Shown: positions 21,592 to 63,404, counted from the stretch's first letter. The stretch: 64,000 nt of DNA from an uncultured Thermoplasmatales archaeon (GCA_964615235.1 CAZTMK010000007.1:22630-86629), one strand, 5' to 3'. A program made the numbers and translations. The notes: generated by a model not told the origin, from the letters alone.

Positions 21592-21816
21592 ATGGATGAG
21601 GGATATATCTATTCAAATAAATTTCGAAAGGCAATTTTTGATGAAGTTGCCTCTGGAGAAACAAATATTAATCGTATTGCTAAAAAACATCATATAATTC
21701 TGACCGTTGCCAAAAAGGTTGCCGAAGAACTTGTAAACAACAATTACTTAGATAAAGAAGGGGAAGGCTATAATCTGTCAAAAGAGGGAGAAAAACTCGC
21801 TGAGCAGATTAGATGA
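21592..21816 (+). CDS. Small winged-helix DNA-binding protein.
   Basis: 74 aa with an HTH-like core NINRIAKKHHIILTVAKKVAEEL. Its stop overlaps the downstream start. Confidence 0.4.
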   Translation: MDEGYIYSNKFRKAIFDEVASGETNINRIAKKHHIILTVAKKVAEELVNNNYLDKEGEGYNLSKEGEKLAEQIR

Positions 21817-22502
21817 TTATTGGGAGTTCTAATATGAAACCGTATCTCTTACAAATGTTGAAAGAGTTAGCTTTGCTTGGTGCTATAGAAAATAGAGTAG
21901 AAATTTCATCTCTTGAACTAGCAAAACAACTTAATACAAGTCAGCAAACAGGTTCGAGATATCTTCTTGAACTTGATAAACAAGACATGATAACCAGGGA
22001 GATGGGCATTAAAAAACAACTTATTCAAATTACTGAAAAAGGAGAAGAAGCCCTACAGGACGAATACATGCGGTACAGAAGTATTTTTGAGTTAACCGAT
22101 CGAGTAAGTCTCGTTGGGAAGGTTGTATCAGGTATGGGCGAGGGAAGATACTACACTGCTCAGGATGGATATGCAAATCAATTTATGGAAAAGCTTGGAA
22201 TTTCAGCATTTCCTGGAACATTAAATGTTGAAATCAAACACATTGATAAAAACAAAATACGTTTAATAAAAAAACATACCGGCATTTTAATAGATTCCTT
22301 TGAATCAAACAATAGAACATTCGGAGCAGTTCAATGTTTTCCTGCCAAAATTAACAATCTTGCCGGTGCTATTGTTCTGCCTGCAAGAAGTCATTATTCA
22401 AATATTTTGGAATTTATCTCAAAATATTACTTGAGGGAGAAGCTTAAACTAAAAGATGACGATGAAGTAAATATCATAATTTTTTTAAACAAAGATAAGT
22501 AA
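21813..22502 (+). CDS. ribK: CTP-dependent riboflavin kinase (archaeal RibK) with an N-terminal HTH domain.
   Basis: GxGEGRYY, PGTLNV and the C-terminal KLKDDDEVNII match the archaeal MJ0056-type RibK. The N-terminal ~80 aa form a wHTH domain, as in Methanosarcina and Thermoplasma RibK proteins. Confidence 0.75.
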   Translation: MIIGSSNMKPYLLQMLKELALLGAIENRVEISSLELAKQLNTSQQTGSRYLLELDKQDMITREMGIKKQLIQITEKGEEALQDEYMRYRSIFELTDRVSLVGKVVSGMGEGRYYTAQDGYANQFMEKLGISAFPGTLNVEIKHIDKNKIRLIKKHTGILIDSFESNNRTFGAVQCFPAKINNLAGAIVLPARSHYSNILEFISKYYLREKLKLKDDDEVNIIIFLNKDK

Positions 22503-22508
22503 GGCGTT

Positions 22509-24224: not shown

Positions 24225-26213
<1,989 letters not shown>

Positions 26214-26222
26214 AGGAATAAT

Positions 26223-26432
26223 ATGCCAGAATGTAGAGTTGAAGAAAACAAATCCAATTGCAATTGTACCTATCCATGCAGCAAAAAAGGCATGTGTTGC
26301 AAGTGCATTTATTCCCATAGAATTGCTGGTGAATTACCTGCTTGTTATTTCCCTGATGATGTTGAAAGGACGTATGATAGAACTATTGAAAATTTTATTA
26401 AAATCTATCAGTCTAGAGGAAGATGGTGGTAA
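26223..26432 (+). CDS. Small cysteine-rich protein (10 Cys in 69 aa).
   Basis: [46 protein letters not shown]. It resembles a conserved small Cys-rich family seen in anaerobes. The assignment is tentative. Confidence 0.4.
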
Positions 26433-26477
26433 AAAACCTACCTAATTTTTATATATGAATGGTTACATCCGTGCACG

Positions 26478-26900
26478 ATGACTGAAAGTAAGGAGAGAAT
26501 TATTCCGATTATTGCGATTTGCGCGCTTTTAATAGGATCTTTTTCCTCGATTTATGTTTACGGGCTAAATTCCAATTATGAATCTAATGAAGATGTCATA
26601 GTAATTAACGGTGAGGAATATTTACTAGAATATCTTTTTTCAAGTATTATCATAAGAAATTTAGATTCTGTTAACGCATCAGGCATTGCCTTGGATAATA
26701 TTATTACTTCAATAAACGTTAATTGCCCCTCCTGCAATTCCTATAAAATTATTGGCAAAGACAGTTATTCTCAGACAGTTACTTGGGAAAATATGCAGAA
26801 CGGTGTTTTGACTAGTGAATTAAAAGTTGTTTTTTCCGATTTACCAAAGGCATTTAATGTTAAAGATGTAGTAGAAATTGAGGTGATACATAATGGATAA
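26478..26900 (+). CDS. Hypothetical membrane-anchored protein.
   Basis: N-terminal TM (IIPIIAICALLIGSFSSIYVYG). No recognisable domain. Confidence 0.4.
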   Translation: MTESKERIIPIIAICALLIGSFSSIYVYGLNSNYESNEDVIVINGEEYLLEYLFSSIIIRNLDSVNASGIALDNIITSINVNCPSCNSYKIIGKDSYSQTVTWENMQNGVLTSELKVVFSDLPKAFNVKDVVEIEVIHNG

Positions 26901-27540
26901 AATGAAATTGATTGCAGGAATAATAGTATTTGGATCAATTTGGGGATTTGCAGAATGCATAATCGGTCCAAAATTATCTGACGTTGGATTACCATCTGGA
27001 GCATTAATGACTAGTCTCTTTGCAATTGGTTTAATGGTCACAAGCAGGATGTTTTACAAGCAGAGAGGTATGCAGCTTGGAATGGGTCTTGTTGCAGGAA
27101 TCTTACGACTTTTTAATCCGTTTGGAGGTTGCGTTGTTTGCTCTGCAATTGCTATAGCTGCAGAAGGACTTTTGTTTGAACTTGTCTGGTACAAAATGTC
27201 ACTTGACTTAAAGGATTTACAAACTAATACAATGAAGGTAAGCATGGGAATAATTTCTTCATATGTTATTTACGTCGGGGGCTACATTACAACACAGATA
27301 CTAACTCCACTTGTATCCACATCGGGTTTCTTCTTGGAAAATTTATTGGGGTTCATACCACAAATATTATCAAGAGGACTTCTTGCTGGAATTATCGGTG
27401 CAGTTACAGTTCCATCGGTTTTACTTCTTAAAGATATAAATATTGAAATCTTAAAAGATAAGCTGTATTATCCTACGGTTGGTGCGGTTTCTTTGTTTTG
27501 TTGGATTTTTGTGGTTGTAAATTGGTTTATTTTTGTTTAG
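26893..27540 (+). CDS. Polytopic membrane protein, possibly a transporter substrate-binding component. Function unknown.
   Basis: About six predicted TM helices. It overlaps the upstream ORF by 8 nt. Confidence 0.45.
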   Translation: MDKMKLIAGIIVFGSIWGFAECIIGPKLSDVGLPSGALMTSLFAIGLMVTSRMFYKQRGMQLGMGLVAGILRLFNPFGGCVVCSAIAIAAEGLLFELVWYKMSLDLKDLQTNTMKVSMGIISSYVIYVGGYITTQILTPLVSTSGFFLENLLGFIPQILSRGLLAGIIGAVTVPSVLLLKDINIEILKDKLYYPTVGAVSLFCWIFVVVNWFIFV

Positions 27541-27551
27541 GAGAATTTTTG

Positions 27552-28001
27552 ATGGATAAACCTAAAACCGTAAAAATTTTAAAATTTCATGCTGAAAAAT
27601 GTAAGGGATGTTTTGAATGCGAAAAAGCATGTTCAAAGGTTCATTTTAAAACAGATGAAGGCAGGGAGAAATCTGCAATTAGAATAATTAAGCAAAACGG
27701 GAAATTTAAGATGCATGTTTGCGATCAAAGAGGCTTATGTATTGACATGTGTCCTGTCGGGGCATTGACAAGAAGAAAAAATGGGGTAGTTTGGCTTGAT
27801 AAAGAAACTTGTATAGGTTGTCAGGCGTGTGTGGGATTTTGCCCGATAGGTGCAATGAGAAAATCCGATGCAAGAATTGAGCCTTTTAAGTGTATTTCAT
27901 GTGGTGCTTGTGTTAGGGCATGTCCCGAAAAGGCCTTGGAACTGGTGGAAGTCAAAATTGATCATATCAAAGATGTAGTTTACCATAAATTGGGGGCATA
28001 A
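27552..28001 (+). CDS. 4Fe-4S multi-cluster ferredoxin, the electron-transfer subunit of the adjacent AOR.
   Basis: AGGAG Shine-Dalgarno before the ATG at 27552. Four Cys clusters (CKGCFECEKAC, CDQRGLCIDMCP, CIGCQACVGFCP, CISCGACVRACP). The stop abuts the AOR start. Confidence 0.75.
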   Translation: MDKPKTVKILKFHAEKCKGCFECEKACSKVHFKTDEGREKSAIRIIKQNGKFKMHVCDQRGLCIDMCPVGALTRRKNGVVWLDKETCIGCQACVGFCPIGAMRKSDARIEPFKCISCGACVRACPEKALELVEVKIDHIKDVVYHKLGA

Positions 28002-28003
28002 AA

Positions 28004-30328
28004 TTGGCTGAAGGACAAATTCCCATAGAAGAATACGAAACAGGAAACACAAAACACAAGTGGGATTTGAAAAAAATAAAATCAGCACACAAGATTATTT
28101 CAGAATATAAATTTAAAAAATCTGAAATCCAGAAAGGATTTGCAAATAGAACTCTTTATGTTAATCTATCTACCGGAGAAATCAAGGAAAAAAAAGTAAC
28201 AGAAGATATGAAAAAGAAATTTACCGGCGGTCGGGGATTTGGTTTAAAACTAATGTGGGATTCAATAAAACCCACGACAAGATGGGATAGTCCAGAAAAC
28301 GAGTTAATTATTACTACTGGTCCTTTATGCGGTGTTACTCAATATGCGGGCTCCGGAAAGTCATTGTGTTTAACAGTTTCACCTTCAACTGATATAATTT
28401 GTGATAGCAATGTTGGAGGCTTTTTTGGCCCTTATCTAAAGTTTGCAGGTTTTGATGCAATTGAGATTCAGGGTAAGGCAAAGCAAGACGTAATAATTCT
28501 TGTTGATGGCGAGGAAGGAAAAATTACTATTGAAACGGCACCATTGGAAGAAACTAATTCACATTTGATTGCCGAACAATTAACACATTTGTACGCCTCT
28601 GAAAACACAGATAAATCTAGGCAAAAAGTATCAGTTGTTTCTGCAGGAACTGCAGCAGAACACAGTTACTGGGGTTGTATGAATTTTTCATTTTTTGACA
28701 TTCGCAGAAAGGTTCCAAGAATTAAACAAGCTGGTAGAGGAGGTTTAGGAACTGTTTTACGTGATAAGAAAATCAAGGCAATTGTTGCAAAAGTGGAAAA
28801 GTTTGACGGCGTTTCAAACAATCCTGCTGATCCTGCAAAACTTGTGGAAGTTGGAACTAAACTTCATAGAGAGATTAGAGACCTTGATAAGTATCAGTGT
28901 AACATGAGGGCGGTTGGTACAGTCCATCTTGTTGAGATTATGGATCAATATGATTTGTTGCCAACTGAGAATTATCGTTTCGGAAGCTTTCCCAAAGCAT
29001 CTAAGATTTATTCGCCTGAATTCTATAGATATTTTACAAAAATAATACCTGATGGGTGCTGGCATGGATGCACAATGGCATGTGCAAAAACTGTCGATGG
29101 ATTTACTGTTATGACTGGGCCTTACAAGGGAGAAAGAGTCACAGTAGATGGACCTGAATACGAAACCTGTGGGTGCGGTGCAAACATGAGTCTTTGGGAT
29201 CCAAAATGGATTTTGGAGTTTAACTTCTATTGTGACACGTATGGGCTTGATACAATATCTACAGGAACTTCAATTGCATTTTACATGGAAATGTACGAAT
29301 ATGGAATTTTAAACAAGGAACGATGTGATGGACTCGAGCTTTGTTTTGGAAACGGTGAGGCAGCACTGGAATTTATTCACAGAATAGCTAAGGGAGATAA
29401 GGGAGAGTTTGTAAAAGTTGCTGCAAAAGGCATAAGAAGAGTAAAGGATTGGCTAATCGAGAAGGGATGGGGAGATCCTCAGCTCATTGATGATTGTGGA
29501 ATGGAAAGTAAGGGTTTGGAGTATTCTGAATATGTAACAAAAGAATCCCTAGCAATGCAAGGAGGATATGGACTTACGTTGAAAGGTCCGCAACATGACG
29601 AAGCATGGTTGATTTTCATGGATATGGTTAACAATCAGATTCCAACTTTTAAAGACAAGGCAGAAGCCCTTCATTACTTTCCAATGTGGCGAACTTGGTT
29701 TGGATTGAACGGCCTATGTAAACTTCCTTGGAATGACGTTGAACCCGAAAATAACGCAGAGACAGACGAACCTGCAAAAGTTCCAGAGCATGTACAAAAT
29801 TATGTGGATTATCAAAATGCTGTGACAGGTTGGAAGGTAAACAAAGAAGAGCTTATTTTACAAAGCGAACGTTGTTATAATTGGCAAAGAGCAATGAACG
29901 TTTGGCTAGGTCGTGGTAGACGAAAGGATGATTGGATTCCTTACAGATCAATGGGTCCTGTTACTGAAATGGAGTATATTTCAAGAAGGGATAGGTATGA
30001 TAAACAACTTGTGGAAAAACTTGATCTTGCCGGAGAAGAAGTCGAAAAAATGCCTGTAGCCGAAAAAATAAAACTTTTGTACAATTATCGCCAGGATCAA
30101 TATCAAAAACTTGCCGATGCGGTGTATTTCCGGAGAGGCTGGACCCATAACGGCGTTCCTACCCCACAGAAAATGAAAAAGTTGGGATTTGATGATCCAA
30201 AAATATTAAAAATGTTACAAAAGGCAATTGATGAAGATGAAAAAGCCGGGCTCAATGTTTGGGGCGGAAAATACAAAAAAGGCGAGAAAGCACCGACTAC
30301 GGATCCCAGATATTGGGAAAAATGGTAA
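28004..30328 (+). CDS. Aldehyde:ferredoxin oxidoreductase family tungsto/molybdopterin enzyme, a long 774-aa form.
   Basis: The AOR N-terminal domain (RTLYVNLSTGEIKEKKVTEDMKKKFTGGRGFGL), a central DGPEYETCGCG block, and the overall AOR layout, with ~45-aa N-terminal and ~90-aa C-terminal extensions. The start appears to be TTG at 28004. Confidence 0.75.
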   Translation: MAEGQIPIEEYETGNTKHKWDLKKIKSAHKIISEYKFKKSEIQKGFANRTLYVNLSTGEIKEKKVTEDMKKKFTGGRGFGLKLMWDSIKPTTRWDSPENELIITTGPLCGVTQYAGSGKSLCLTVSPSTDIICDSNVGGFFGPYLKFAGFDAIEIQGKAKQDVIILVDGEEGKITIETAPLEETNSHLIAEQLTHLYASENTDKSRQKVSVVSAGTAAEHSYWGCMNFSFFDIRRKVPRIKQAGRGGLGTVLRDKKIKAIVAKVEKFDGVSNNPADPAKLVEVGTKLHREIRDLDKYQCNMRAVGTVHLVEIMDQYDLLPTENYRFGSFPKASKIYSPEFYRYFTKIIPDGCWHGCTMACAKTVDGFTVMTGPYKGERVTVDGPEYETCGCGANMSLWDPKWILEFNFYCDTYGLDTISTGTSIAFYMEMYEYGILNKERCDGLELCFGNGEAALEFIHRIAKGDKGEFVKVAAKGIRRVKDWLIEKGWGDPQLIDDCGMESKGLEYSEYVTKESLAMQGGYGLTLKGPQHDEAWLIFMDMVNNQIPTFKDKAEALHYFPMWRTWFGLNGLCKLPWNDVEPENNAETDEPAKVPEHVQNYVDYQNAVTGWKVNKEELILQSERCYNWQRAMNVWLGRGRRKDDWIPYRSMGPVTEMEYISRRDRYDKQLVEKLDLAGEEVEKMPVAEKIKLLYNYRQDQYQKLADAVYFRRGWTHNGVPTPQKMKKLGFDDPKILKMLQKAIDEDEKAGLNVWGGKYKKGEKAPTTDPRYWEKW

Positions 30329-30336
30329 TAAGTTAC

Positions 30337-30933
30337 ATGAATAAATCAATGTTTGATAAAATTAGGATAAAATTAAAAAGTTCTAGTGTTGGGATAGCAG
30401 GCATCGGTGGACTTGGATCAAATGTTGCAATTGCTTTAACAAGGGCAGGTGTTGGCCGACTTGTCTTAGTTGATTTTGATTTTGTTGAAAAAAAAAATCT
30501 AGATAGACAATACTTTTTTCTTGATCAAGTTGGTAAACTAAAAACAACTGCAATCAAAGAAAACATTAAAAAAATAAATCCCGAAACAATCGTTGAAACC
30601 CACGAAATTAGACTTGAAAAAGGAACGATGGAAAAGCCATTTAGAAATGTCGACGTAATTATCGAGGCATTGGATAGTGCAGAAATAAAAACTTTATTTA
30701 TTGAAGAAATCCTTGAAAAACTCCCAGATAAACCAATAATTGCAGCTTCGGGAATCACGGGTTACGGTCACTGTGAAAGATTTAATACAAAATGCTTAGG
30801 CAACCTCTACATGTGCTATGATGAGGAGGCGAAATCCAGCGATGAGGATATTCTTTTTGCACCAAGAGTTGCAATAGCAGCCAACTGGGAGGCGAATCTG
30901 GCCTTAGAGCTTTTATTGGGGAAAGACCAATGA
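30337..30933 (+). CDS. E1-like adenylyltransferase of the ThiF/MoeB/UbaA family (short form).
   Basis: Gly-rich nucleotide loop VGIAGIGGLGSNVAIALTRAGVGRLVLVDFDFVEKKNLDRQ. The ORF track start 30259 overlaps the AOR gene. The ATG at 30337 is the likely start. Confidence 0.7.
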   Translation: MNKSMFDKIRIKLKSSSVGIAGIGGLGSNVAIALTRAGVGRLVLVDFDFVEKKNLDRQYFFLDQVGKLKTTAIKENIKKINPETIVETHEIRLEKGTMEKPFRNVDVIIEALDSAEIKTLFIEEILEKLPDKPIIAASGITGYGHCERFNTKCLGNLYMCYDEEAKSSDEDILFAPRVAIAANWEANLALELLLGKDQ

Positions 30934-45890: not shown

Positions 45891-46739
45891 ATGGCTCACA
45901 AACATTTTTTCATAAATAAGAATGCTGTTGCAGGAGTAATTGAGGCTTTGTTACTTGTTGCGTTGGTATCAGTTGTTCTGTCAACAATCCAACTCATATA
46001 TATTCCACAAACTATGGAGCAAAGAGAAGCAGATCACATGGATGAAGTTGAAAATCAATTTTCATTTTTAAAATCGGTTATTGATTTACAATCAATGGTC
46101 AGTGAAAACGTTCCAATTTCATCACCAATTACACTTGGCAGTGATGAGCTTCCATATTTTGTAACCGCAAGAGCTTTTGGTCAATTGGATGTAATTGATG
46201 AGAGTAGAACAGATTCCAAGATTACCTCTGATTTTCTTATAGGCGTCCCTCTTACGTCTATATGCTACGAGGCGTTTAATTCATATTATATTGATCAATT
46301 ATATGTATTGGAGGGTGGTAGTGTCATAGTGAAACAACCTGATGGAGAAACGGTGATAATTGAACCATCGATAAAATTTGAAAATAGAAGTAGTGAAATA
46401 AGGATTTATTATAGTCTTCCTATGTTAAAAAGTGTGGAAGGTAAGAACTCAAACAGCGGTTATAAAAATCGATTCATTAGGACTAATTATTCAAGTAAAA
46501 CAACATATGCTGGTGCAACGACTTTTGTTAGAATTTATACTGATTATCTTGACGCTTGGAATAATTCATTAAATAAAATGCTTGAGGGGGAAATTAAAAA
46601 TGGCTATATTATTGTTAGAAAATATCCTCTAAACTCTCCACAGTATGTTAGCATTACACCCGGTACAAAAAATCTTTATTTGGAATTAACTGTGAATAAT
46701 ATTGGGGCTCAGATTGGTCCAGGTTATATATTTACCTGA
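45891..46739 (+). CDS. Type-IV-pilin-like / class III signal-peptide protein (archaeal pilin or FlaF/FlaG-like surface-structure protein).
   Basis: N-terminus MAHKHFFINKNA|VAGVIEALLLVALVSVVLSTIQL: a basic stretch, a putative prepilin-peptidase site after K-N-A, then a ~22-aa hydrophobic helix with Glu at +6. GGAG Shine-Dalgarno upstream. The rest of the 282 aa is non-hydrophobic and beta-rich. Confidence 0.5.
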   Translation: MAHKHFFINKNAVAGVIEALLLVALVSVVLSTIQLIYIPQTMEQREADHMDEVENQFSFLKSVIDLQSMVSENVPISSPITLGSDELPYFVTARAFGQLDVIDESRTDSKITSDFLIGVPLTSICYEAFNSYYIDQLYVLEGGSVIVKQPDGETVIIEPSIKFENRSSEIRIYYSLPMLKSVEGKNSNSGYKNRFIRTNYSSKTTYAGATTFVRIYTDYLDAWNNSLNKMLEGEIKNGYIIVRKYPLNSPQYVSITPGTKNLYLELTVNNIGAQIGPGYIFT

Positions 46740-46869
46740 TAAAATTTCCAGGATAATGAGTTTGTGTTTCCAATAAGTAAGCTTTTTATTGAAGATGGAT
46801 ATATAACTCTCGGAATGGTCTGATTGGAATAATTAAATCTTACAATACTAATAATTTGAGCGATATATC

Positions 46870-47655
46870 ATGAGCGATATTCAATTTGTTGGAAATCTTG
46901 AAAGGGTACAAAAAGATCCAATTTTAAAAACCCACATTGCTGGATTTGACTCGTTATTCGAAGCAGGGGGAATCCCTCGTGGAAACACTGTATTGGTGGC
47001 GGGAGGTCCGGGTACCGGTAAAAGTATAATATGCCGACAAATTTGTTTTAATCTTATTTCTAAGGGTAAAAACTGCATGTATGTTAGTTTTGAAGAAAAT
47101 GCAGACAGGATTGAAATGAGTATGGATAAATTTGGATGGGATGTGAGGAAATATATTGAAAACAATCAGTTTTTAATTCAACAAATTAATCCTTTGGATA
47201 TTTTAAGAATGAAGTTTGGCTCTCTAGGAGGTTCAGGATCCGCAACCGAGGTTTCAAGCCGAATAAAACCTTTAGTTATTCCAAAGGATTTTTATCCAGA
47301 GGTTATAGTTGTGGATTCTTTAACAGCAATTATTTCCGTATCTGTTACAAAGGATAAGAATTATAGGGTTTATCTTCAGCAACTGTTTGATTTTTTTGAG
47401 GAGTCGGGGGCCACATCCTTTCTAATTACCGAAACAGATCCGGTTCCTAGTAGATTCAGTGAATCAGGCATTGAGGAATTCTTAGCTGATGGAATCATTG
47501 TTTTGTATAATTTGAAAAACAAAAACGGTAGAGAAAGTGCAATTGAAGTCTTGAAGATGAGGAATATGAAGCACGAAAAACGAGTGGTTTCTATGCAAAT
47601 AACAGAGGACGGTATTGAGATATTTCCCGATAGAACTGTAGATTTTTCACAATAA
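46870..47655 (+). CDS. Single-domain KaiC/RadA-superfamily ATPase (FlaH/ArlH-like).
   Basis: GFDSLFEAGGIPRGNTVLVAGGPGTGKSIICRQ Walker A in the characteristic KaiC context. Walker B VIVVDSL. 261 aa. Confidence 0.75.
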   Translation: MSDIQFVGNLERVQKDPILKTHIAGFDSLFEAGGIPRGNTVLVAGGPGTGKSIICRQICFNLISKGKNCMYVSFEENADRIEMSMDKFGWDVRKYIENNQFLIQQINPLDILRMKFGSLGGSGSATEVSSRIKPLVIPKDFYPEVIVVDSLTAIISVSVTKDKNYRVYLQQLFDFFEESGATSFLITETDPVPSRFSESGIEEFLADGIIVLYNLKNKNGRESAIEVLKMRNMKHEKRVVSMQITEDGIEIFPDRTVDFSQ

Positions 47656-47659
47656 ATTT

Positions 47660-47887
47660 TTATAAAAATTTGAAAGGCTCTGCATGTTGACTAAGTCTTT
47701 TTGCACCATATCTCATAATGTTATTTTCAATTTGTTTTATTTGAATTCTGTTTAGACCTGTACGTTTCAAAATTAGTTTATCGTCTTCGTCGAAGATACG
47801 GATTGTGCCATCATCTGGGCATAAGATGGCTTTGATTATTCTTCCAAATTGGAGCCATATCCAGATGCTGACATTTTGTTGGGACAA
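47660..47887 (-). CDS. Small hypothetical protein (75 aa) lying between the two KaiC-like genes on the opposite strand.
   Basis: An ORF with no recognisable motif. It may be non-coding. Confidence 0.2.
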   Translation of the reverse strand: MSQQNVSIWIWLQFGRIIKAILCPDDGTIRIFDEDDKLILKRTGLNRIQIKQIENNIMRYGAKRLSQHAEPFKFL

Positions 47888-48079
47888 TTAATCACCTAGC
47901 AATTTTATATGTATTATTTTTATTTTTATAAGTATATAAATATTTCTTTTAACCTCCAGAAAACTATATTAAGCATAAGTGAAAGACAAAAAGAAAGACT
48001 TAAAAATTGTAATTTTTTAGCAATTTAAGATACCTAAAAAATAAAGGATAAAATAATATAATAGCAATGTTATTTCATA

Positions 48080-48850
48080 ATGGGAATGGATGTGGCTGAG
48101 GAAATGTTCTATCGGCAAGATCAAATTGATGATAGGGTTAAAACAGGTTTGGAAGGTCTAGATTCTCTCGTTCAAGGTGGTTTTCCAAAGAGATCGATTA
48201 ATTTGGTTTCTGGCCCACCTGGAAGTGGAAAAAGCATATTTTGTTTCCAATTTCTCTACGAGGGATTAAAAAATAACGAGAAAGGACTTTATCTCACTTT
48301 AGATAAGAAAGTCGATGGTATAATTAATCAAGCCAAAAAAATTGGGTTTGATTTTACTTCTGCTATTGAAAATAAATTGGTTAAATTTCAATATTTGAAC
48401 ATAAATAAAAAAATGATATACGAAAACATGACTAATGAAATTCTTTCGGGTAGCTATTCTAGGGTTATTCTCGACTCGATTTCACCTTTGGCTGAAATGC
48501 CAATTTTTATTAAAAATACAGACAACATCCCTGACATTAGTATAATTAATTCTGCCAGTGGTGAATCATCTAAGTCCGAATTACCTATAAGAAGACTACA
48601 TTTAAGATATATTTTTGATGCTCTGGAGACATCTGAAACAACTTCCATTGTAACCTCTGAATTGCCATTAGGATCTACTATACTTTCACGTGATGGCATT
48701 TCGGAATTTCTTGCAGATTCGGTAATTCTTCTAAATTTTGATCCCACTATGGATAGAAGAAAAATATCAGTAATGAAGATGAGAAATACCAAGCACACCC
48801 TTAAACCTCAAGAGATAGAAATTGGAATCGGCGGTCTGCGTATTTTATGA
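48080..48850 (+). CDS. Second single-domain KaiC/RadA-superfamily ATPase (FlaH/ArlH-like).
   Basis: GLEGLDSLVQGGFPKRSINLVSGPPGSGKSIFCFQ Walker A, Walker B VILDSIS. 256 aa. It is diverged from the first copy. Confidence 0.75.
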   Translation: MGMDVAEEMFYRQDQIDDRVKTGLEGLDSLVQGGFPKRSINLVSGPPGSGKSIFCFQFLYEGLKNNEKGLYLTLDKKVDGIINQAKKIGFDFTSAIENKLVKFQYLNINKKMIYENMTNEILSGSYSRVILDSISPLAEMPIFIKNTDNIPDISIINSASGESSKSELPIRRLHLRYIFDALETSETTSIVTSELPLGSTILSRDGISEFLADSVILLNFDPTMDRRKISVMKMRNTKHTLKPQEIEIGIGGLRIL

Positions 48851-48863
48851 TTGGTCGAGTCAG

Positions 48864-49331
48864 ATGTTTCATTATCGACCTCCAAAAAAACTAAGGGCAC
48901 TATTTATTGTGCATTATGCACCCCTGTTGCTTATCATTTTGATTGGTCCGCTAACTGCTTTTTATGGAGTATGGGAGATACCTTTTCATCGTTTAGCAAC
49001 CATTCTTTCCGGTTTGACAATTTTTATTATTGGTACTTTCATTTATTTTAAATGGGAGATTTTTTGGACAAAGACTTATCGTGGGCAACTTGTAACTGGC
49101 GGGATTTTTCAATATATTAGACATCCACACTATGCTTCAATTATAATTGTTGGGTTTGGACTTGCACTATTTTTTTTTTCACTTGCCGCTCTGTTAATAG
49201 CTGTAGTTGCATTGCCAGTAATGATGTGGAGTATTTTTGATGAGGAAAAACTTCTGATAAAAAAATACGGAGAAGAATACAAGAAATTTATGAAGGATGT
49301 ACCTTGGAGAATAATTCCAAAGATCTTTTGA
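48864..49331 (+). CDS. Membrane methyltransferase of the ICMT/PEMT-like family, a paralog of the gene at 4584..5153.
   Basis: LVTGGIFQYIRHPHYAS plus EE.L...YGEEY..Y...VP. The ATG at 48864 avoids overlap with the KaiC-like gene. The ORF track start is 48822. Confidence 0.55.
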   Translation: MFHYRPPKKLRALFIVHYAPLLLIILIGPLTAFYGVWEIPFHRLATILSGLTIFIIGTFIYFKWEIFWTKTYRGQLVTGGIFQYIRHPHYASIIIVGFGLALFFFSLAALLIAVVALPVMMWSIFDEEKLLIKKYGEEYKKFMKDVPWRIIPKIF

Positions 49332-50417: not shown

Positions 50418-50945
50418 GTGAAAATAATGAACTCAGATAAACAGACTTTGACAATTTCCAGATCTCGTAACTATTTGATATATCTGATCATTTTTATGGG
50501 CCTTGTTGCCATAATGGATCAATATCTTTCAAGTGTGAAGATGACTGCACTGCCTTATATTTGTCAAACTTATAATATTTCAACGGCCGACTTTGAATGG
50601 TGGGAAGGTTGGTACTTAATTCCAACTTTTTTCATTTTTTTGCTTAATGGATTAAATGATATAATAGGAAGAAAATTGTCGATTCTTATATTAATTCTTA
50701 TGATGGGTTTTTCTTCTATTGCAATTGTACTTTATACTTCAACATTTCATTTGTTTATGTTTTTTTATGCTATTATGACTTTTACTACTGTGTCAAATAT
50801 GTGGAGCATTCCCATTAGTGAGGAATCACCTGCACAAAAAAGATCAGTAATAAAAAAAATACAAGTGGCATCAACCAGGCTATCAAAAGACCTAACTCCA
50901 TTTATTTCACCTCAATATGTAATTGCCTCCCCTTTGGCGAATTAG
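50418..50945 (+). CDS. MFS-transporter-like N-terminal fragment (4 TM helices), probably a truncated remnant.
   Basis: TM1-TM4 with the MFS loop motif GLNDIIGRK between TM2 and TM3. The ORF ends after 175 aa, against the 12 TM expected. Confidence 0.35.
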   Translation: MKIMNSDKQTLTISRSRNYLIYLIIFMGLVAIMDQYLSSVKMTALPYICQTYNISTADFEWWEGWYLIPTFFIFLLNGLNDIIGRKLSILILILMMGFSSIAIVLYTSTFHLFMFFYAIMTFTTVSNMWSIPISEESPAQKRSVIKKIQVASTRLSKDLTPFISPQYVIASPLAN

Positions 50946-50976: not shown

Positions 50977-51669
50977 TTAAAGTTTTTTTGCCGATGTAAC
51001 CTCGCCATCTTTTGATTTCATCGAGAACAATATCGGATAAACAATATCACTTGTACAACAAGGAATCCATACTGCTAAGAAAAGAAATACAAATATTCCG
51101 ATCATTTGTAAAAATGTTATCGTTGAACCTATCGCAGTTATTATGTGAAAAAGCGATGCCCATGTACTTATTAAAACATGTCCTGCATGTGGTAACTTTG
51201 TTACACCTCTCCAATAACCTAAAAGTATTCCAATAATTGCGGGGATATTTGTGCGAAGGGGTGCTTCAATAAATCCGATATGTGCTTCTGGGTTATCAAG
51301 TCCCAGAATTGTTTCACCCATAAAAGGAATAATGGAATCACTAATTGTTGCGATGCCTACTGATCCGGTATAGCCAATTATTAATGCAAGCCATAAGTTT
51401 TTTTTGTTATATTTTATGAAAAGTGTTGTAGTAACAATCGCACTAAAAAACACATGAGTGGGATGAAGAATATAAAATATATCTTCCGAAATTGGTGAAA
51501 CATAATCAAGAAAATTTCCGTATATAATTATTATCATGATGGCAATGCCAGTAAGTGCACCAAATATTGTGAAAGGAGCATGATTTTTCATTTCATGTAC
51601 TAGTCTTGTAAGAATTTTCCCCATGAGTATCGATATTTTGTTAAGATTTATAAAATTTATTAATAACAT
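50977..51669 (-). CDS. Polytopic membrane protein of unknown function (possible metal transporter, given the adjacent nikR).
   Basis: About six TM helices with His-rich segments (ILHPTHVFF, LPHAGHVLIS). No secure family assignment. Confidence 0.4.
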   Translation of the reverse strand: MLLINFINLNKISILMGKILTRLVHEMKNHAPFTIFGALTGIAIMIIIIYGNFLDYVSPISEDIFYILHPTHVFFSAIVTTTLFIKYNKKNLWLALIIGYTGSVGIATISDSIIPFMGETILGLDNPEAHIGFIEAPLRTNIPAIIGILLGYWRGVTKLPHAGHVLISTWASLFHIITAIGSTITFLQMIGIFVFLFLAVWIPCCTSDIVYPILFSMKSKDGEVTSAKKL

Positions 51670-51710
51670 TTATGTAAATTTTTTAAATAAGTTATTAATA
51701 TTGTTGATTA

Positions 51711-52091
51711 ATGGTAGTTGTAAGTATCTCTCTTAATGAAAATATTTTGAATGAAATCGATAGAATGGAAAAGGAACTAGGGTATTCTGGCAGATCTGAA
51801 GTCATTAGAGCCGGCGCTCGATATTTAATTTCAGAATTTAAAGATAGAGAAAAAATTTCCGGTCAAATCAACGCAATACTTCTTTTGATTCATTCTTCAG
51901 ATTCAGAGGATGTTGTTTCTGAGATTAAACATAATTTTGAGGATGTCACTATTACACAGATACACAGCCATCTAAGAAATAAATGTCTTGAAATTTTTAT
52001 ATTGGAAGGTGATGCTGAAAAGATAAAAGAGATGGTTAGACTTTTTCAAACTAGCAGAAAAATGGACAATGTAAAATTAATTATTGCTTAA
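51711..52091 (+). CDS. nikR: Nickel-responsive transcriptional regulator NikR (ribbon-helix-helix plus ACT-like metal-binding domain).
   Basis: N-terminal RHH VVSISLNENILNEIDRMEKELGYSGRSEVIRAGARYL. The C-terminal domain carries H..H...C ligands (HSHLRNKC). Confidence 0.7.
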   Translation: MVVVSISLNENILNEIDRMEKELGYSGRSEVIRAGARYLISEFKDREKISGQINAILLLIHSSDSEDVVSEIKHNFEDVTITQIHSHLRNKCLEIFILEGDAEKIKEMVRLFQTSRKMDNVKLIIA

Positions 52092-52370: not shown

Positions 52371-54653
52371 TTATTTTTTCAATATTGGAATTCCTTGATT
52401 ACTGAATCCATTATTTGGCTCATAAGGATTAAATGCAGGATCTCCTAAAAGAATACGAACATAGTAAGTTGGAAGTTCCTTATCCACCAATTTTTCTTGT
52501 CTAAGTGCTTCGCCAATGCTCAAATCATCCATAATTAAATGATTTTCTAGTGTAGCAAGTCCTGCCTCTCTACCAGTTTCCCTTGTTGCACCTATAAACG
52601 AATTACAGCCTGCGTGTAGCATTGTTGCCCCGATATTCATCCTTGGTGGGATTCCATCAATTCTTCCCATAAGACATGCCGATGTGAGAAAAATGCTAGG
52701 CTTTGAAAAAATCCAATTTTGTACATGGGCAATATCTATTGCCTTACTTAAATAATCAAAGCCATACCAAGATGGGGTATACCAATACCAATCTCCATGA
52801 CCTAAGTATTCAATATAATTTGAGCCAGTATAAGCATCTAAAAATTCTGTTATTTGCCGCCCGTTTCTGAAATCGCCAAAAACTCTTGGTTTAAACCCAA
52901 ATTTAGTAATTTCAATTGCATAAGGAATTTGATGAAAGATGCCGCCCGTTTCTCCGAATCCTTCTCCAAATATGAAACTGAATCTGTTATGCCAGTCATT
53001 TGAACTAGCTGGCTGATTGCAAATATCTTCATAAAACAAAGTTCTGTCGATTAATAAAGAAACATCCTGAACATCCCATCCGATGATTCTACCTACAGAT
53101 AAAGACCAATTGAGAGAATATGGATTATCTGAAGCAAGACCTTTTTCATAAAGAGTTGCCTGAGATGGTCCATAGTAATACATGGGAATCATGTTAGCAT
53201 CACCTAGTATTGCAAGCCATGCTGATCCTTCAAGGTATCCATCTAACAAATCGAAATTTTCCATCAATGCTAGGCTTTTTGTTAGTTCTGACAGTGTTAA
53301 ATTTACCTTTTCGTTGTTATGTAGATGTAGTTTTTCATTATAAGAAGGTCCTGAACCGGTTCCTTGGGCTTCATTGTAATAATCGTCTGATGTAAGTGCA
53401 AAATCTTCCTCGGCAATTATTAACCCGCCATGGGCGGCAGTTAAGTATGGGGCTAAAATTGAAAGGTTTGGAACAATAGGGTTATGTGGCTTATCTAAAA
53501 ATGACCTAGATATAGATATATCATAGTCGACGTCTGCAACTGATAGACCTCGTTGGGAAAAATATCCCCCTTTGATTCCGTGGTAAATTTTTACTTCCAA
53601 ATTATAATTTCCGGATAGATTGCAGGATAATGTTTCAAGATAAGTTTTACCGATGTCATAGCCGAGACTAGATGAATATGAAACAATGTTTTCATTAGGA
53701 TCAAACAGATAAGCTGTTATTATTGGAACAACATCTTTGAAAATTGAATTTCGCGTTTTTGTGATGTTTATGTAAATTTGAATTCGCTCTATTTCGTTTG
53801 AAACTGGGATTGAATATGATTTCTTGGGGTTACCTGCTAACTGAATTTCCCTGCTTCCAAGGGTTAATTTTACATTTGAGAATCTATCCTTAATAAGAGT
53901 TACATTCCTTGAAATAACAAAGTGTGGTACAACATCATATGGGTTTGTAATAGTTAGATAGTTGATTTTGCCAAAATTATTTTTAATTGCAGCTAGAATA
54001 GTATTTTGAATACTGTCCTTATTTATTAATTCAGTAATGGATATATCTGAAAGATTTACACTGATATTTCCTATAACATAGGCAGTAGATACATTCAATT
54101 GCTTGCACAGACTTTGTATTTCGTTTTCATTTTGATCAAAAATTAGGATTGGAATATTTAGGTAACTTGCAAGGGGACTAGCAATTAATCCGAGTTTGTA
54201 AGATTCATCTCCGTCATAAGGGAGGATCAGAACTGTATCGGTATATCTGAATGTCTGTTTTGCTAACTCTATTGAAACTTCAGGTGGATAGCCCAATATT
54301 TCATTTTTATTAAAATCAGTTGAAATTTTTTCCCCAAGAACCAAAAGTGATTTATTATTATCATCCAGATAATTACTCAAAAATAAAATCTGATGGTCTG
54401 TTAAAAATCCTTTATTTTGGACGATTAATGGACATAGCCCAGTAAGATTTTCATCAAAATCGTACCAACATGCCAAACTGCTACCAATTATGGCATAAAA
54501 TGGATCACCATCTGGAACAATCACAGCATTTGGATGAAAATTCCTATTGCTTTCAAATCCAAATTCTTCATAATTTTTTTCCCCCTCAATTGAATAAATA
54601 AAAATTGATGAAAAAAATAGAAAAAACAATAATAAGGTTGAAATTTTCTTCAT
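52371..54653 (-). CDS. Secreted clan CD cysteine peptidase, gingipain (C25)-like.
   Basis: Signal peptide. A His-Gly ... Ala-Cys catalytic dyad arrangement (YLGHGDWYW ... FLTSACLMGRIDG) spaced ~40 aa apart, as in C25/C11 peptidases. 760 aa with C-terminal beta-rich domains. Confidence 0.5.
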   Translation of the reverse strand: MKKISTLLLFFLFFSSIFIYSIEGEKNYEEFGFESNRNFHPNAVIVPDGDPFYAIIGSSLACWYDFDENLTGLCPLIVQNKGFLTDHQILFLSNYLDDNNKSLLVLGEKISTDFNKNEILGYPPEVSIELAKQTFRYTDTVLILPYDGDESYKLGLIASPLASYLNIPILIFDQNENEIQSLCKQLNVSTAYVIGNISVNLSDISITELINKDSIQNTILAAIKNNFGKINYLTITNPYDVVPHFVISRNVTLIKDRFSNVKLTLGSREIQLAGNPKKSYSIPVSNEIERIQIYINITKTRNSIFKDVVPIITAYLFDPNENIVSYSSSLGYDIGKTYLETLSCNLSGNYNLEVKIYHGIKGGYFSQRGLSVADVDYDISISRSFLDKPHNPIVPNLSILAPYLTAAHGGLIIAEEDFALTSDDYYNEAQGTGSGPSYNEKLHLHNNEKVNLTLSELTKSLALMENFDLLDGYLEGSAWLAILGDANMIPMYYYGPSQATLYEKGLASDNPYSLNWSLSVGRIIGWDVQDVSLLIDRTLFYEDICNQPASSNDWHNRFSFIFGEGFGETGGIFHQIPYAIEITKFGFKPRVFGDFRNGRQITEFLDAYTGSNYIEYLGHGDWYWYTPSWYGFDYLSKAIDIAHVQNWIFSKPSIFLTSACLMGRIDGIPPRMNIGATMLHAGCNSFIGATRETGREAGLATLENHLIMDDLSIGEALRQEKLVDKELPTYYVRILLGDPAFNPYEPNNGFSNQGIPILKK

Positions 54654-59020: not shown

Positions 59021-60718
59021 ATGAAAAAAAGTAATGAAATTTATATTATGATAATAACTTTGATAGTTGTATTAATAGTAATTATTTCAAGTTTGTATGT
59101 ATATTTTGGGTATTTTACAGACGAAGAGAAAGCTGAAACAGAACCTGTTGAAACAATTGGCAATGAAATTGACCCGTTAACAAATCAAGCAGTTTTTTTC
59201 CACATTCATAGGATTAGAAAAAAGGGAATAATAAATAAGCTATATAATGCCGGGTCACCTCTTGACTATTCCCCAAGAAAAACTAGCGGTGGATCGGATA
59301 TAACTCACAAATTGGAAGGATTAAGACCTGGTTTTGGTTGGGATGAAAAGCCAATTTTTAACTATATTTGCATACTGGATGGTTACATCCATACTGGGGA
59401 TGTCGATTTTAAATGCTGGGATACGGGTTATATAAATCATTGTTTTTTCAGAAATGTTGAAGAAAATCTTTCTACGGTTGATGTTGAATTCAAAATAATT
59501 GAAGTAAACTATAATAAATTGAAAGATACAAGGAACACAAAAGAAGTTGAAAACTTCAAATTTATTTATGATTTTAGAGACGGTACTTGGAACGGGGAAG
59601 ATTCCTTTAATGATACTGACGGTTATGGTCACATAAATACTACAGATTATGAATTATGGTTTAAAATCGGTCAAACAGATTTTGATGATGATGGTATACC
59701 CTGGAGAGTAGAAAAATTGTTACTCGGTACTAATCCAATGATTGATGATTCAAAGCTAGATCCAGATGAAGATGGGATACCTACTGCCTGGGAATGGAGA
59801 TGGGGATATGATCCATTTACCAAAGATAATCATAGTGTCCTAGATCCTGATAATGATGGCCTGGAAAACATCGAGGAATGGTTAATGTCTAAATGGCAAG
59901 CAAATCCATTCCAACCCGAGATGTATATCGAGGTTGATTGGATGGAGAAATCTCCATTTAAACTTTTTGAGATAGAAATTACATCAGGAATAATTTTCAA
60001 ATCTTTAAAAAGACCCAGGATTGTTAAGTCTCGTCTAGACGGTTGGGAACATATTTTATATGAAGAATCTCAACAAATGATAATTGAACGTTTTAATGAA
60101 CATGGTATAACCGTTCATTTCGATGATGGGTGTATGGGCGGTGGTGGAGATGTATTGCCATTTGCTAAAGCAAATTATGAAACGGCCGATCGAATATATT
60201 TAGAACATGCTTTAAGAAATCAAGATAATGGTTTAGTTTCAGAATTCTATTACAATAACTTTGCAGATGAACGTAAAGGAATATTTCGCTATTGCGTTAT
60301 TGCTCATGGGGGAGGTTGGTGTCACCCTCAAGATATTGGGCACGGATATGATTATTTAGTTGTTCCTACAGGAAAAGAATTTAACAAGAATTCAATGGGT
60401 TGTGCTTGGACCCAAAGAACAAGGAGAATAGCTCTAGCTTGCGGTGTATTTCACGAACTTGGTCATTCGTGCGGTCTACATGGTTTTGATGGAATAGACA
60501 ATTGCACAGCTAAAGCAGGAAATCCACCTGATTATCCTTGGTGGGACTATGTGAGTGTTATGAACTATGATTACTATATGCAGCGATATTTTGATTACTC
60601 TCATGGACAAAATGGAGGTAAATACGATCAAGATGACTGGGAAATAGTTGATGTTTCTCATTTCCAAGGCCCCTCTGAATATATGGAAGGCGTTGGAGCC
60701 GGAGTTGTATTTGAATAA
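59021..60718 (+). CDS. Secreted zinc metalloprotease (HEXXH) with thrombospondin-type-3-like Ca-binding Asp-rich repeats.
   Basis: N-terminal TM/signal. DxDxDG-type repeats (FDDDGIPW, DPDEDGIPTAW, DPDNDGLENIEEW). The zincin motif VFHELGHSCGLHG. A Cys-rich C-terminal region. Confidence 0.55.
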   Translation: MKKSNEIYIMIITLIVVLIVIISSLYVYFGYFTDEEKAETEPVETIGNEIDPLTNQAVFFHIHRIRKKGIINKLYNAGSPLDYSPRKTSGGSDITHKLEGLRPGFGWDEKPIFNYICILDGYIHTGDVDFKCWDTGYINHCFFRNVEENLSTVDVEFKIIEVNYNKLKDTRNTKEVENFKFIYDFRDGTWNGEDSFNDTDGYGHINTTDYELWFKIGQTDFDDDGIPWRVEKLLLGTNPMIDDSKLDPDEDGIPTAWEWRWGYDPFTKDNHSVLDPDNDGLENIEEWLMSKWQANPFQPEMYIEVDWMEKSPFKLFEIEITSGIIFKSLKRPRIVKSRLDGWEHILYEESQQMIIERFNEHGITVHFDDGCMGGGGDVLPFAKANYETADRIYLEHALRNQDNGLVSEFYYNNFADERKGIFRYCVIAHGGGWCHPQDIGHGYDYLVVPTGKEFNKNSMGCAWTQRTRRIALACGVFHELGHSCGLHGFDGIDNCTAKAGNPPDYPWWDYVSVMNYDYYMQRYFDYSHGQNGGKYDQDDWEIVDVSHFQGPSEYMEGVGAGVVFE

Positions 60719-62021: not shown

Positions 62022-63404
62022 ATGGGTTATTTAAGAAATATCCAATTTATTGCTGTTTCCTTTTTTGCACTCGTTTTAATTACTCAAACAATAAGTGCTT
62101 CAAATTGTTGGATTAGAGATGAATCTGGAAGGACAGTTATCCTTCATGGGCTAAATATATCCAATGCTTCAAAAAGAACTGATAATCAGATTTCATGGCA
62201 TACATGCACTGATTACGAAAGGATGAGTAGAGATTGGGGTTTTAATTGTATTCGCATGCTTATTTTTTGGTCTGCGATAGAACCAGAACCTGGTATATAC
62301 AATGAAAGTTACTTAGATTTGGTAGAAGAAAGAGTAAACTGGGCTGAAGATTTTGGATTGTATGTTATTTTAGATATGCATCAAGATGTATACAGTTCAA
62401 AGTTTGGTGGGAACGGAGCCCCCCTTTGGGCTGTGTGGGACGATAATATTTCATACAAATCTGTGGAACCATGGTGGTTTAATTATATTCAACCTGCTGT
62501 AATACGTGCTTTTAAAAATTTTTGGACAGAAGAATACCTTCAAAACCATTTTAAAGATGCATGGACCAATGTAGCAGATCGATTTTCTAATAGTTCAACA
62601 GTAATTGGTTATGAAATACTTAATGAGCCTTTTTTTGGTTCTTTTTTGCCATGGGTATTTGAAAAAATATATCTTAAAAATTTTTGCTTGGATGTAATTA
62701 ATTCGATAAGATCTGTTGATACAAATCATTACATTTTTTACGAACCAGAGATAATGACCAGTGCAGGATTTAGATCTTTTCTAGACAATCTAAACTGCGA
62801 AAAATTAGTTTATAGTCCACATTTTTACCAAACAACGGTTCATGAGGGTTTTCCATATTTTGGTTTTCCGTTTTTTATAAAAAGAACTTTGGAACTAAGA
62901 AATTCTGAAGCAGAATCAGCAAATGTTCCATGGTTACTGGGGGAATTTGGCGTTTCAAAGGATCTTTCTGGAATGGATAATTATCTTACCGATATTTTGA
63001 AAGTATTAAATTCCCATCTTTCTAGTTGGACTTATTGGTCTTATGATTATGATTCCCAAAATGAGGTTGGAATAATAGACAATTTTGGAGGAGAGAATCC
63101 ACAGTTAAATTATCTGGTTTATCCCTATCCTCAAAAAATTGCAGGAGATCCTGTTAGTTTTAGCTATGATTATGAGGGCAGAGTTTTTGCTTTGGAATTT
63201 AAAAGTAATAAAAGTGTTTGCGGTCCAACAGAAATTTATATCGGGCAGAGTCGAATTTATCCAAATGGATTTATTTTGGATTGCTCCGATCCAACATCCT
63301 CTTGGGAATATTCAGAAAATAATGATAAAATACTGGTTGTGACAAACTCAACTAACAATATTGTCAAAATAGATATTAGACCAAGTACTCAAGAGCTAAG
63401 GTAA
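62022..63404 (+). CDS. Secreted glycoside hydrolase family 5 enzyme.
   Basis: Signal peptide. GFNCIRMLIFWSAIEP and LDMHQD. Catalytic acid/base in IGYEILNEP and nucleophile in LLGEFG. This is the GH5 (beta/alpha)8 fold. Confidence 0.8.
   Translation: MGYLRNIQFIAVSFFALVLITQTISASNCWIRDESGRTVILHGLNISNASKRTDNQISWHTCTDYERMSRDWGFNCIRMLIFWSAIEPEPGIYNESYLDLVEERVNWAEDFGLYVILDMHQDVYSSKFGGNGAPLWAVWDDNISYKSVEPWWFNYIQPAVIRAFKNFWTEEYLQNHFKDAWTNVADRFSNSSTVIGYEILNEPFFGSFLPWVFEKIYLKNFCLDVINSIRSVDTNHYIFYEPEIMTSAGFRSFLDNLNCEKLVYSPHFYQTTVHEGFPYFGFPFFIKRTLELRNSEAESANVPWLLGEFGVSKDLSGMDNYLTDILKVLNSHLSSWTYWSYDYDSQNEVGIIDNFGGENPQLNYLVYPYPQKIAGDPVSFSYDYEGRVFALEFKSNKSVCGPTEIYIGQSRIYPNGFILDCSDPTSSWEYSENNDKILVVTNSTNNIVKIDIRPSTQELR

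Follow-up and report, generated by a model that had tools for sequence, protein, structure and literature searches.

Five adjacent genes in a 64,000-nucleotide (nt) stretch of DNA from an uncultured Thermoplasmatales archaeon (GCA_964615235.1 CAZTMK010000007.1:22630-86629; the whole of this stretch is referred to as the window in the following) form a conserved cassette of an uncultured Thermoplasmatota lineage, in which a type-IV-pilin-like surface protein is encoded together with two single-domain KaiC-family ATPases, a small protein and a membrane methyltransferase. The first gene, P282 (45891..46739, plus strand), encodes a 282-residue protein of the DUF7289 family. It is followed on the same strand by KaiC-1 (46870..47655, 261 residues), an ATPase with an intact catalytic site, and then by sm75 (47660..47887, minus strand, 75 residues), which is convergent with KaiC-1 and divergent from KaiC-2 (48080..48850, plus strand, 256 residues), a single-domain paralogue in which the catalytic Glu-Glu pair is substituted. 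A conserved non-coding element, TATATAAATATTTCT, lies at 47933..47947 in the spacer that separates the divergent genes sm75 and KaiC-2, and 14 nt past the stop codon of KaiC-2 begins the gene of a PEMT/ICMT-family membrane methyltransferase, most likely at 48864..49331 on the plus strand. An initial annotation of the window had recognized the pilin-like gene, the two ATPase genes and a 75-residue open reading frame (ORF) on the opposite strand, with coordinates, strands and lengths that our ORF listing reproduces exactly; it had missed that this small ORF is a real gene, that the catalytic site of KaiC-2 is substituted, and that a methyltransferase belongs to the set. In our view, the cassette most likely serves as an accessory to a type IV pilus, with the ATPase/platform operon of this pilus at another place in the genome.

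The window is archaeal, with a G+C content of about 33% and genes for SRP54, the archaeal CCA-adding enzyme and arcTGT, and its nearest relatives are Thermoplasmatota metagenome-assembled genomes throughout. A scan of the GTDB species-representative genomes yielded 80 loci, all of them from Thermoplasmatota, with P282 identities from 88% down to 35%. The order P282(+), KaiC-1(+), sm75(-), KaiC-2(+), methyltransferase(+) is fixed, and the whole chain is found in 60 of the 80 species-level loci, the remainder being paralogues or chains cut by contig ends; given that the gene order is kept in so many species-representative loci, the arrangement is more than chance. The median gaps are 108 nt between P282 and KaiC-1, 9.5 nt between KaiC-1 and sm75, 159 nt between sm75 and KaiC-2, and 7 nt between KaiC-2 and the methyltransferase gene. 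Both flanks vary: clustering the nearest sizeable ORF on the upstream side gives 7 clusters, with leuC found in 35 loci and a beta-helix protein in 16, and doing so on the downstream side gives 19. The five genes thus stay linked although their neighbors differ, and the pilin-like gene and the ATPase genes exhibit conserved synteny. This also answers a question raised by the initial annotation, namely whether the trio of pilin-like gene and ATPases persists in relatives away from arl/fla loci or dissolves into independently scattered paralogues, in favor of the former. Across the loci, the cytoplasmic proteins are 60-75% identical, compared to 40-50% for P282.

Some departures from the standard layout were observed as well. 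In one species (L049, 5542-7202), KaiC-1, sm75 and the methyltransferase are present and KaiC-2 is absent, with about 230 nt between sm75 and the methyltransferase gene, which looks like a natural loss of KaiC-2. Tandem duplications inside the cassette have produced two copies of P282 in L038 (3440-5224) and two copies of sm75 in L077 (11845-12469).

P282 is a type-IV-pilin-like protein, as had been proposed, on the basis of a conserved class-III-like junction, a predicted helix-plus-head model and paralogues in pilus operons. Its N-terminus, MAHKHFFINKNA↓VAGVIEALLLVALVSVVLSTIQ (the arrow marks the putative cleavage site), consists of a basic leader, the residues K-N-A and a hydrophobic stretch with Glu at +6, just as first described. 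Within the P282 family, the leader is short, basic and variable, and the junction A↓VAGVIEALL is near-invariant: the -1 residue is A in 66 of 70 sequences and G in the remainder, the +1 residue is V, L or I, and Glu at +6 is kept in 67 of the 70. P282 thereby has the features of a class-III-type signal peptide, that is, a short basic leader, a small -1 residue and a hydrophobic helix as in the pilins of the lineage. Likewise, a junction of a polar residue and A, followed by V-S/A-E/Q (polar-A↓V-S/A-E/Q), occurs in eight Pilin_N-type proteins from the lineage's pilus operons, and hhalign aligns the P282 family with the Pilin_N-type proteins in register across 46 N-terminal columns (E 1e-4, probability 57%). 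P282 is probably cut at A12/V13 by the lineage's prepilin peptidase.

The predicted model of P282 combines a helix comprising residues 10-70, of which residues 34-61, outside the membrane, are very strongly conserved, with a beta-rich head that carries four conserved N-glycosylation sequons. Among solved structures, no significant relative of the head domain was found, and a FlaF/FlaG-type beta-sandwich, which the initial annotation had suggested looking for, gave no match either. P282 has at least 619 homologues. Its score against DUF7289 (PF23960), a Pfam family without assigned function, is 19.3 bits and thus below the gathering cut-off of 27; many orthologues at 58-84% identity have a precomputed PF23960 match, and among the paralogues, that of L087 scores 38.1 bits and those of L088, L063 and L076 score 23-25 bits.

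In about 24 loci of a sister clade (L053, 7547-9896; also L044, L046, L047 and L078), the gene immediately preceding P282, on the same strand as P282, encodes a secreted protein of about 625 residues that combines NosD/beta-helix and PKD parts. In this clade, an sm75 paralogue is divergent from the beta-helix/PKD gene, such that the layout of a small minus-strand gene facing a plus-strand operon occurs twice, and in L076 a beta-helix/P282-like pair lies within a pilus locus. These arrangements suggest a pairing of a minor pilin with an adhesin.

In the window, no pilus machinery was found to accompany P282. Pfam searches of 20 further ORFs on the upstream and far-downstream sides, which included all of the largest and covered the scanned blocks and, elsewhere, ORFs from about 440 residues upward, detected neither a T2SSE-type ATPase nor a T2SSF/TadC/ArlJ-type platform protein; a tblastn search of the whole window with the lineage's own pilus ATPase, platform and pilin returned nothing; and besides P282, no pilin- or archaellin-type N-terminus in the window is convincing. 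A region at 21813-30933, where the gene sizes would fit a hidden pilus operon, instead encodes, according to Pfam, a riboflavin kinase, PolX, an NAD-dependent ligase, a ferredoxin, AOR and ThiF. The earlier statement that FlaI/FlaJ partners are lacking in the 64 kb is therefore borne out by the Pfam and tblastn searches, and so is the view that the locus is not an archaellum, given that the ArlH cut-off is not reached and that ArlI, ArlJ and archaellin were not found in the window.

In related genomes, P282 paralogues do reside next to such machinery. Six loci outside the cassette harbor a P282 paralogue without the KaiC pair, and five of them (L076, L084, L085, L087 and L088) contain T2SSE and/or T2SSF, several together with Pilin_N. 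L088 encodes T2SSF, two Pilin_N proteins, the DUF7289 paralogue and a T2SSE ATPase, which scores 102.9 bits and gives a weak PilB3-like match in its C-terminal part, and L087 has the same core plus a 289-residue KaiC on the opposite strand; T2SSE and T2SSF are found in L084, T2SSF in L085, and T2SSF with a Pilin_N protein in L076. Since L087 belongs to the same assembly as the cassette locus L044, and L088 to the same assembly as the cassette locus L027, the cassette coexists there with a complete pilus operon. The KaiC of the pilus operons is 42-47% identical to KaiC-1 and 24-30% identical to KaiC-2. In the cassette-linked P282 subfamily, AGVIEALL is an invariant motif that places Glu at +6. 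The four pilus-operon paralogues that have diverged most read VVG(V/I)V(T/V)A and have no Glu at this position, while the paralogue of L076 retains it. As both P282 and KaiC-1 have paralogues in pilus operons, the most parsimonious origin of the cassette would be a duplication from such an operon. Counterparts of KaiC-2, sm75 or the methyltransferase do not occur in these operons.

Both ATPases are diverged single-domain members of the KaiC superfamily, in agreement with the initial annotation. They match Pfam KaiC (PF06745, gathering cut-off 26.6) with 182.8 bits in the case of KaiC-1 (E 8e-54, profile positions 2-229 of 231) and 138.4 bits in that of KaiC-2 (E 3e-40, positions 1-226 of 231), and are 32% identical to each other. 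For both, the nearest solved structure is KaiC 8zn5 (E 6e-44 for KaiC-1 and 3e-34 for KaiC-2), followed by the single-domain proteins PH0284 and PH0186 from Pyrococcus. The more specific label of FlaH/ArlH-like proteins, which had also been proposed, does not apply: the ArlH/FlaH model NF052589, whose cut-off is 215 bits, scores KaiC-1 at 62.5 and KaiC-2 at 49.9, the scores of both for the FlaH models PRK06067 and PRK08533 are far under the cut-offs, and the FlaH structure 4wia is matched by KaiC-1 with an E of 1e-6 and not by KaiC-2 (E > 1e-5), so that both proteins are much closer to the KaiC CI domain and to PH0284/PH0186 than to FlaH. We also rejected an identity as circadian KaiC, as the proteins have one domain each and score 94-122 bits (KaiC-1) and 61-107 bits (KaiC-2), compared to cut-offs of 546 for TIGR02655 and 408 for PRK09302.

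The two paralogues differ in their catalytic site. In KaiC-1, the Walker A motif (GGPGTGKS), the catalytic Glu pair (SFEEN) and the Walker B motif (VIVVDSLT) are all intact. In KaiC-2, the Walker A (GPPGSGKS) and Walker B (RVILDSIS) motifs are intact, while the Glu-Glu pair is replaced by Asp-Lys (TLDKK); the alignments to solved structures match yvSFEEn of KaiC-1 to fvTFEEs of KaiC and place ylTLDKk of KaiC-2 at the same site. FEE is kept in about 70 of 76 KaiC-1 orthologues and LDK[KQR] in all 65 KaiC-2 sequences with an intact motif, and the Walker A and Walker B motifs are conserved in the orthologues of both. Given that it keeps both Walker motifs while the Glu pair is replaced, KaiC-2 is a conserved paralogue with an altered catalytic site, which should bind nucleotide and may have lost the ability to hydrolyze it. 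Residues 107-127 of KaiC-1 form a Ser/Gly-rich loop, NPLDILRMKFGSxGGSGSATE, which is very strongly conserved in its orthologues and could be a regulatory or phosphorylation loop.

The 75-residue ORF between the two ATPase genes is a real and strongly conserved gene, which is present in every complete cassette and has 20 invariant positions across 49 sequences. The secondary structure of sm75 comprises four strands, a helix and one further strand. No Pfam or NCBIfam family matches the protein, and an exhaustive hidden Markov model search of 1.84 billion representative proteins retrieved only 105 matches to the sm75 family, nearly all of which are stand-alone proteins of 55-100 residues; the few large proteins match solely via a repeated hairpin. 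The family is small, lineage-restricted and new. Its similarity to WGR is one of fold only, with no match in sequence. A helix-turn-helix regulator was considered and rejected, as only HTH_19 was matched, with an E of 0.06, and weak matches to LSM, MORN and WD40 are not significant.

The non-coding element in the adjacent spacer, TATATAAATAT(T/A)T at 47933-47947, lies about 50 nt from the start codon of sm75. It is found with at most 2 mismatches in 57 of 65 sm75/KaiC-2 spacers, compared to a mean of about 4 such spacers in shuffled sequences, its core positions are identical in 62-63 of 63, and it is conserved across species with proteins that are only 40-70% identical. The core occurs 90 times in 1.22 Mb of loci, and 65 of these occurrences fall in the sm75/KaiC-2 spacer, always in one orientation. 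Read on the minus strand, the element resembles an archaeal B recognition element followed by a TATA box, and it is probably, in the simplest case, the sm75 promoter, or else a bidirectional promoter/operator. We also sought it upstream of P282 and of the sm75 paralogue and did not find it at either place; it thus defines no shared regulon within the locus.

The methyltransferase gene follows directly after KaiC-2 in all complete cassettes. Its product matches Pfam PEMT (PF04191) with 44.9 bits (cut-off 25) and ICMT with 32.7 bits (cut-off 24), and reaches 51 bits against a cut-off of 160 for the NCBIfam isoprenylcysteine methyltransferase, of which it is not an equivalog. The longest ORF begins with a TTG at 48822, whereas the orthologues favor an ATG at 48864.

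That KaiC-family ATPases are found beside archaeal pilin genes is an already published theme. Several KaiC families (arCOG01171, arCOG01174 and arCOG01175) are associated with archaeal type IV pilus loci (Makarova, Koonin and Albers 2016, PMC4858521), and much resembles the cassette there: a single-domain KaiC, predicted to be a pilus regulator, lies beside pilin-like genes, sometimes with a small, non-enzymatic adaptor partner, and the pilin sets can be apart from the ATPase/TadC module, the clade-2 modules using pilins that are encoded elsewhere (PMC4858521). It is nothing out of the ordinary in Euryarchaeota and Thermoplasmatales for pilin genes to lie far from their machinery (PMC4858521, PMC12448462), the distance being about 500 kb in Thermoplasmatales (PMC12448462). 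The cassette KaiCs differ from these families in lying beside a detached pilin-like gene and not in a machinery operon, and in being two, one of which has a substituted catalytic site. Furthermore, sm75 is a beta+alpha protein that is neither KaiB-like nor DEATH-like, and the methyltransferase is a fixed part of the cassette.

Two characterized KaiC-like regulators of archaeal filaments offer further points of comparison. ArlH/FlaH likewise has a single RecA/KaiC-type domain and a length of about 230-260 residues; it acts on a type-IV-filament ATPase by nucleotide binding and autophosphorylation, a mode of action that would, by analogy, be plausible for KaiC-1 and KaiC-2, and a preprint describes its control of ArlI via autophosphorylation. 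Unlike ArlH, the cassette has no ArlI, ArlJ, archaellin or ArlF/G context in the window. CirA, encoded in the arl region of Haloferax volcanii (PMC10983859), is also single-domain and KaiC-like, and controls type-IV-filament expression in a pathway that involves the hydrophobic N-terminal domains of pilins, both CirA and these domains being regulators of motility (PMC10983859). By contrast to the cassette ATPases, it is encoded by a lone gene beside arl genes in a haloarchaeon, with neither a catalytically altered, paired paralogue nor a pilin-like neighbor.

Cyanobacterial KaiC likewise brings together two KaiC domains of differing catalytic character, which in the cassette would be separate polypeptides; CI and CII are fused in the cyanobacterial protein, and both keep the Glu-Glu pair where KaiC-2 has Asp-Lys. 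The cassette, moreover, has no KaiA or KaiB. P282, finally, resembles euryarchaeal minor pilins and DUF7289 proteins, which have about 280 residues, a class-III-like N-terminus and a beta-rich head, are prone to duplication and occur in or away from T2SSE/T2SSF operons; its cassette subfamily is set apart by its own AGVIEALL motif. In the literature that we searched, we found no mention of DUF7289, and the fixed architecture of a detached DUF7289 gene, an asymmetric KaiC pair, sm75 with its spacer element and a methyltransferase appears to be undescribed there, although a 2017 KaiC survey might cover part of it.

Few archaeal proteins are as expanded, and as little understood, as the KaiC-family ATPases, whose control of filaments is known only in outline, from ArlH and CirA. 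Rather than a new type of filament, what the cassette offers is a compact and strongly conserved arrangement in which to ask whether single-domain KaiC paralogues form mixed rings and how they couple to type IV pili. It also gives the uncharacterized DUF7289 a context and establishes a small new protein family. Its hosts are uncultured Thermoplasmatota, a group frequent in sediments, where attachment to particles is probably of importance.

The reading that we prefer, with a probability of roughly 0.5, is that P282 is a processed, glycosylated minor pilin of a remote pilus machine, and that KaiC-1 and KaiC-2, probably together with sm75, act as a switch that tunes this pilus. P282 would be made with a class-III-type signal peptide, exported, cleaved, glycosylated and exposed on the surface as a minor pilin; in the sister clade, it may cooperate with the upstream beta-helix/PKD protein, in the manner of a tip or priming complex. 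In the cytoplasm, the intact KaiC-1 and the presumably nucleotide-binding KaiC-2 with its replaced Glu pair might form a complex and operate as a switch by nucleotide state or phosphorylation, with sm75 as a possible partner or output, and this switch would tune either the assembly or the expression of the pilus system. Precedents for such a switch are the action of ArlH on the archaellum motor ArlI and that of the KaiC-like CirA on the arl genes of Haloferax. A regulatory KaiC pair, as envisaged in the initial annotation, is hence still the leading idea.

Several points weigh against this reading. P282 has no match to Pfam Pilin_N (PF07790) at E<=1 and stays under the threshold of DUF7289, and its -2 residue is polar and uncharged, where archaeal prepilins usually have a charged residue. 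Adjacency could mean co-regulation without mechanistic coupling, and the absence of KaiC-2 in one species (L049) indicates that the KaiC pair is not strictly obligatory. Lastly, cleavage leaves a mature pilin without any cytoplasmic portion, and whatever coupling there is to the KaiC proteins has to be indirect.

The alternative that survives best, although we regard it as somewhat unlikely, is that KaiC-1, sm75, KaiC-2 and the methyltransferase constitute a general signalling cassette unrelated to pili, of which P282 is simply a long-standing neighbor, for instance a leftover of the duplication. KaiC-family ATPases have indeed been proposed as general signalling hubs of archaea (cited in PMC10983859). 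With a median of 108 nt between them, P282 and KaiC-1 may be on separate transcripts, the lack of pilus-operon counterparts for KaiC-2, sm75 and the methyltransferase fits a pilus-independent role, and the higher identity of the cytoplasmic proteins (60-75% against 40-50% for P282) implies different evolutionary rates. An exposed protein, however, is expected to evolve faster anyway, P282 directly precedes KaiC-1 in every one of the 60 complete cassettes despite the turnover on both sides, and pilus operons, too, contain paralogues of P282 and KaiC-1 together.

We find it rather doubtful that P282 stays uncleaved and serves as a single-pass, membrane-anchored scaffold or sensor in the manner of PilN/PilO or ArlF/ArlG, with the KaiC pair reading out its state in the membrane. 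The continuous helix of residues 10-70, with its very strong conservation outside the membrane (residues 34-61), and the missing Pilin_N match would be in line with such a role, as would the regulation of motility in Haloferax by membrane pools of the hydrophobic domains of pilins (PMC10983859). More speculative still, and in our view improbable, is a self-contained, membrane-spanning signalling device, in which the membrane pool or assembly state of P282, with its invariant helix Glu, would be read by a split KaiC with an active and a pseudo-active half, the signal would pass via a WGR-like sm75 binding the spacer element, and the ICMT-type methyltransferase would modify P282 covalently. If this were true, the methyltransferase acting on P282 would be an archaeal counterpart of bacterial prepilin methylation.

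The initial annotation had also considered a reduced or novel surface filament. Such a self-contained filament system, or the remnant of an archaellum with a duplicated FlaH, would account for the ATPase and platform genes not found in the 64 kb and for the weak, sub-threshold matches to ArlH and FlaH models, but this explanation is largely refuted and has very little probability left. The ArlH scores of 62 and 50 bits are far from 215, FlaH is a far poorer match than KaiC, and related genomes that bear the cassette also hold complete pilus operons with paralogues of P282 and KaiC-1. No KaiC-family protein is known to assemble a filament. Moreover, pilins encoded away from their machinery are nothing unusual (PMC4858521, PMC12448462). 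The last alternative, which sees in the ATPases either housekeeping recombination paralogues of the RadA/RadB type or components of an anti-phage defence system, is effectively refuted: both do belong to the RecA superfamily and show weak local P-loop matches to RadA/RadB models and to mad8/AbiO of PADLOC, but the RadB model TIGR02237 gives only 23 bits (KaiC-1) and 19 bits (KaiC-2) against 172, the PADLOC matches are confined to the P-loop, no PADLOC defence model matches P282, sm75 or the methyltransferase, and the link to the pilin-like gene is fixed.

Other features of the window include a difference between strains downstream of the cassette. Two metagenome contigs, L001 and L002, have near-identical cassettes (98-100% protein identity) and diverge past an epimerase gene: L002 encodes a full MFS transporter of 416 residues and then a HisKA_7TM histidine kinase of 903 residues, whereas the window (50418-50945) and L001 have just an MFS fragment of 172-175 residues, followed by a membrane protein and NikR, which points to a rearrangement at the level of strains whose breakpoint falls within the MFS gene. 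In the window (50977-52091, including the regulator gene), this membrane protein is a multi-pass protein of 230 residues with His-rich HPTH/HAGH motifs and no Pfam family; it is encoded divergently from the NikR-type regulator and may be a transporter for nickel or another metal.

Scans of the window for tRNAs and Rfam families found nothing, and a scan for bacterial-type promoters and terminators, a method ill-suited to archaea, found no enrichment over shuffled sequences. At 22509-26213, the gene of a PolX-family polymerase that includes a PHP domain precedes that of an NAD-dependent DNA ligase of bacterial type, here in an archaeon. The Pfam scan further identified a PQQ/beta-propeller protein of 1496 residues (13344-17834, plus strand), a gingipain-like Peptidase_C25 of 760 residues (52371-54653, minus strand) and a GH5 cellulase (62022-63404, plus strand), and left a 565-residue ORF at 59021-60718 on the plus strand without a match; together, these four are consistent with a polymer-degrading lifestyle in sediments.

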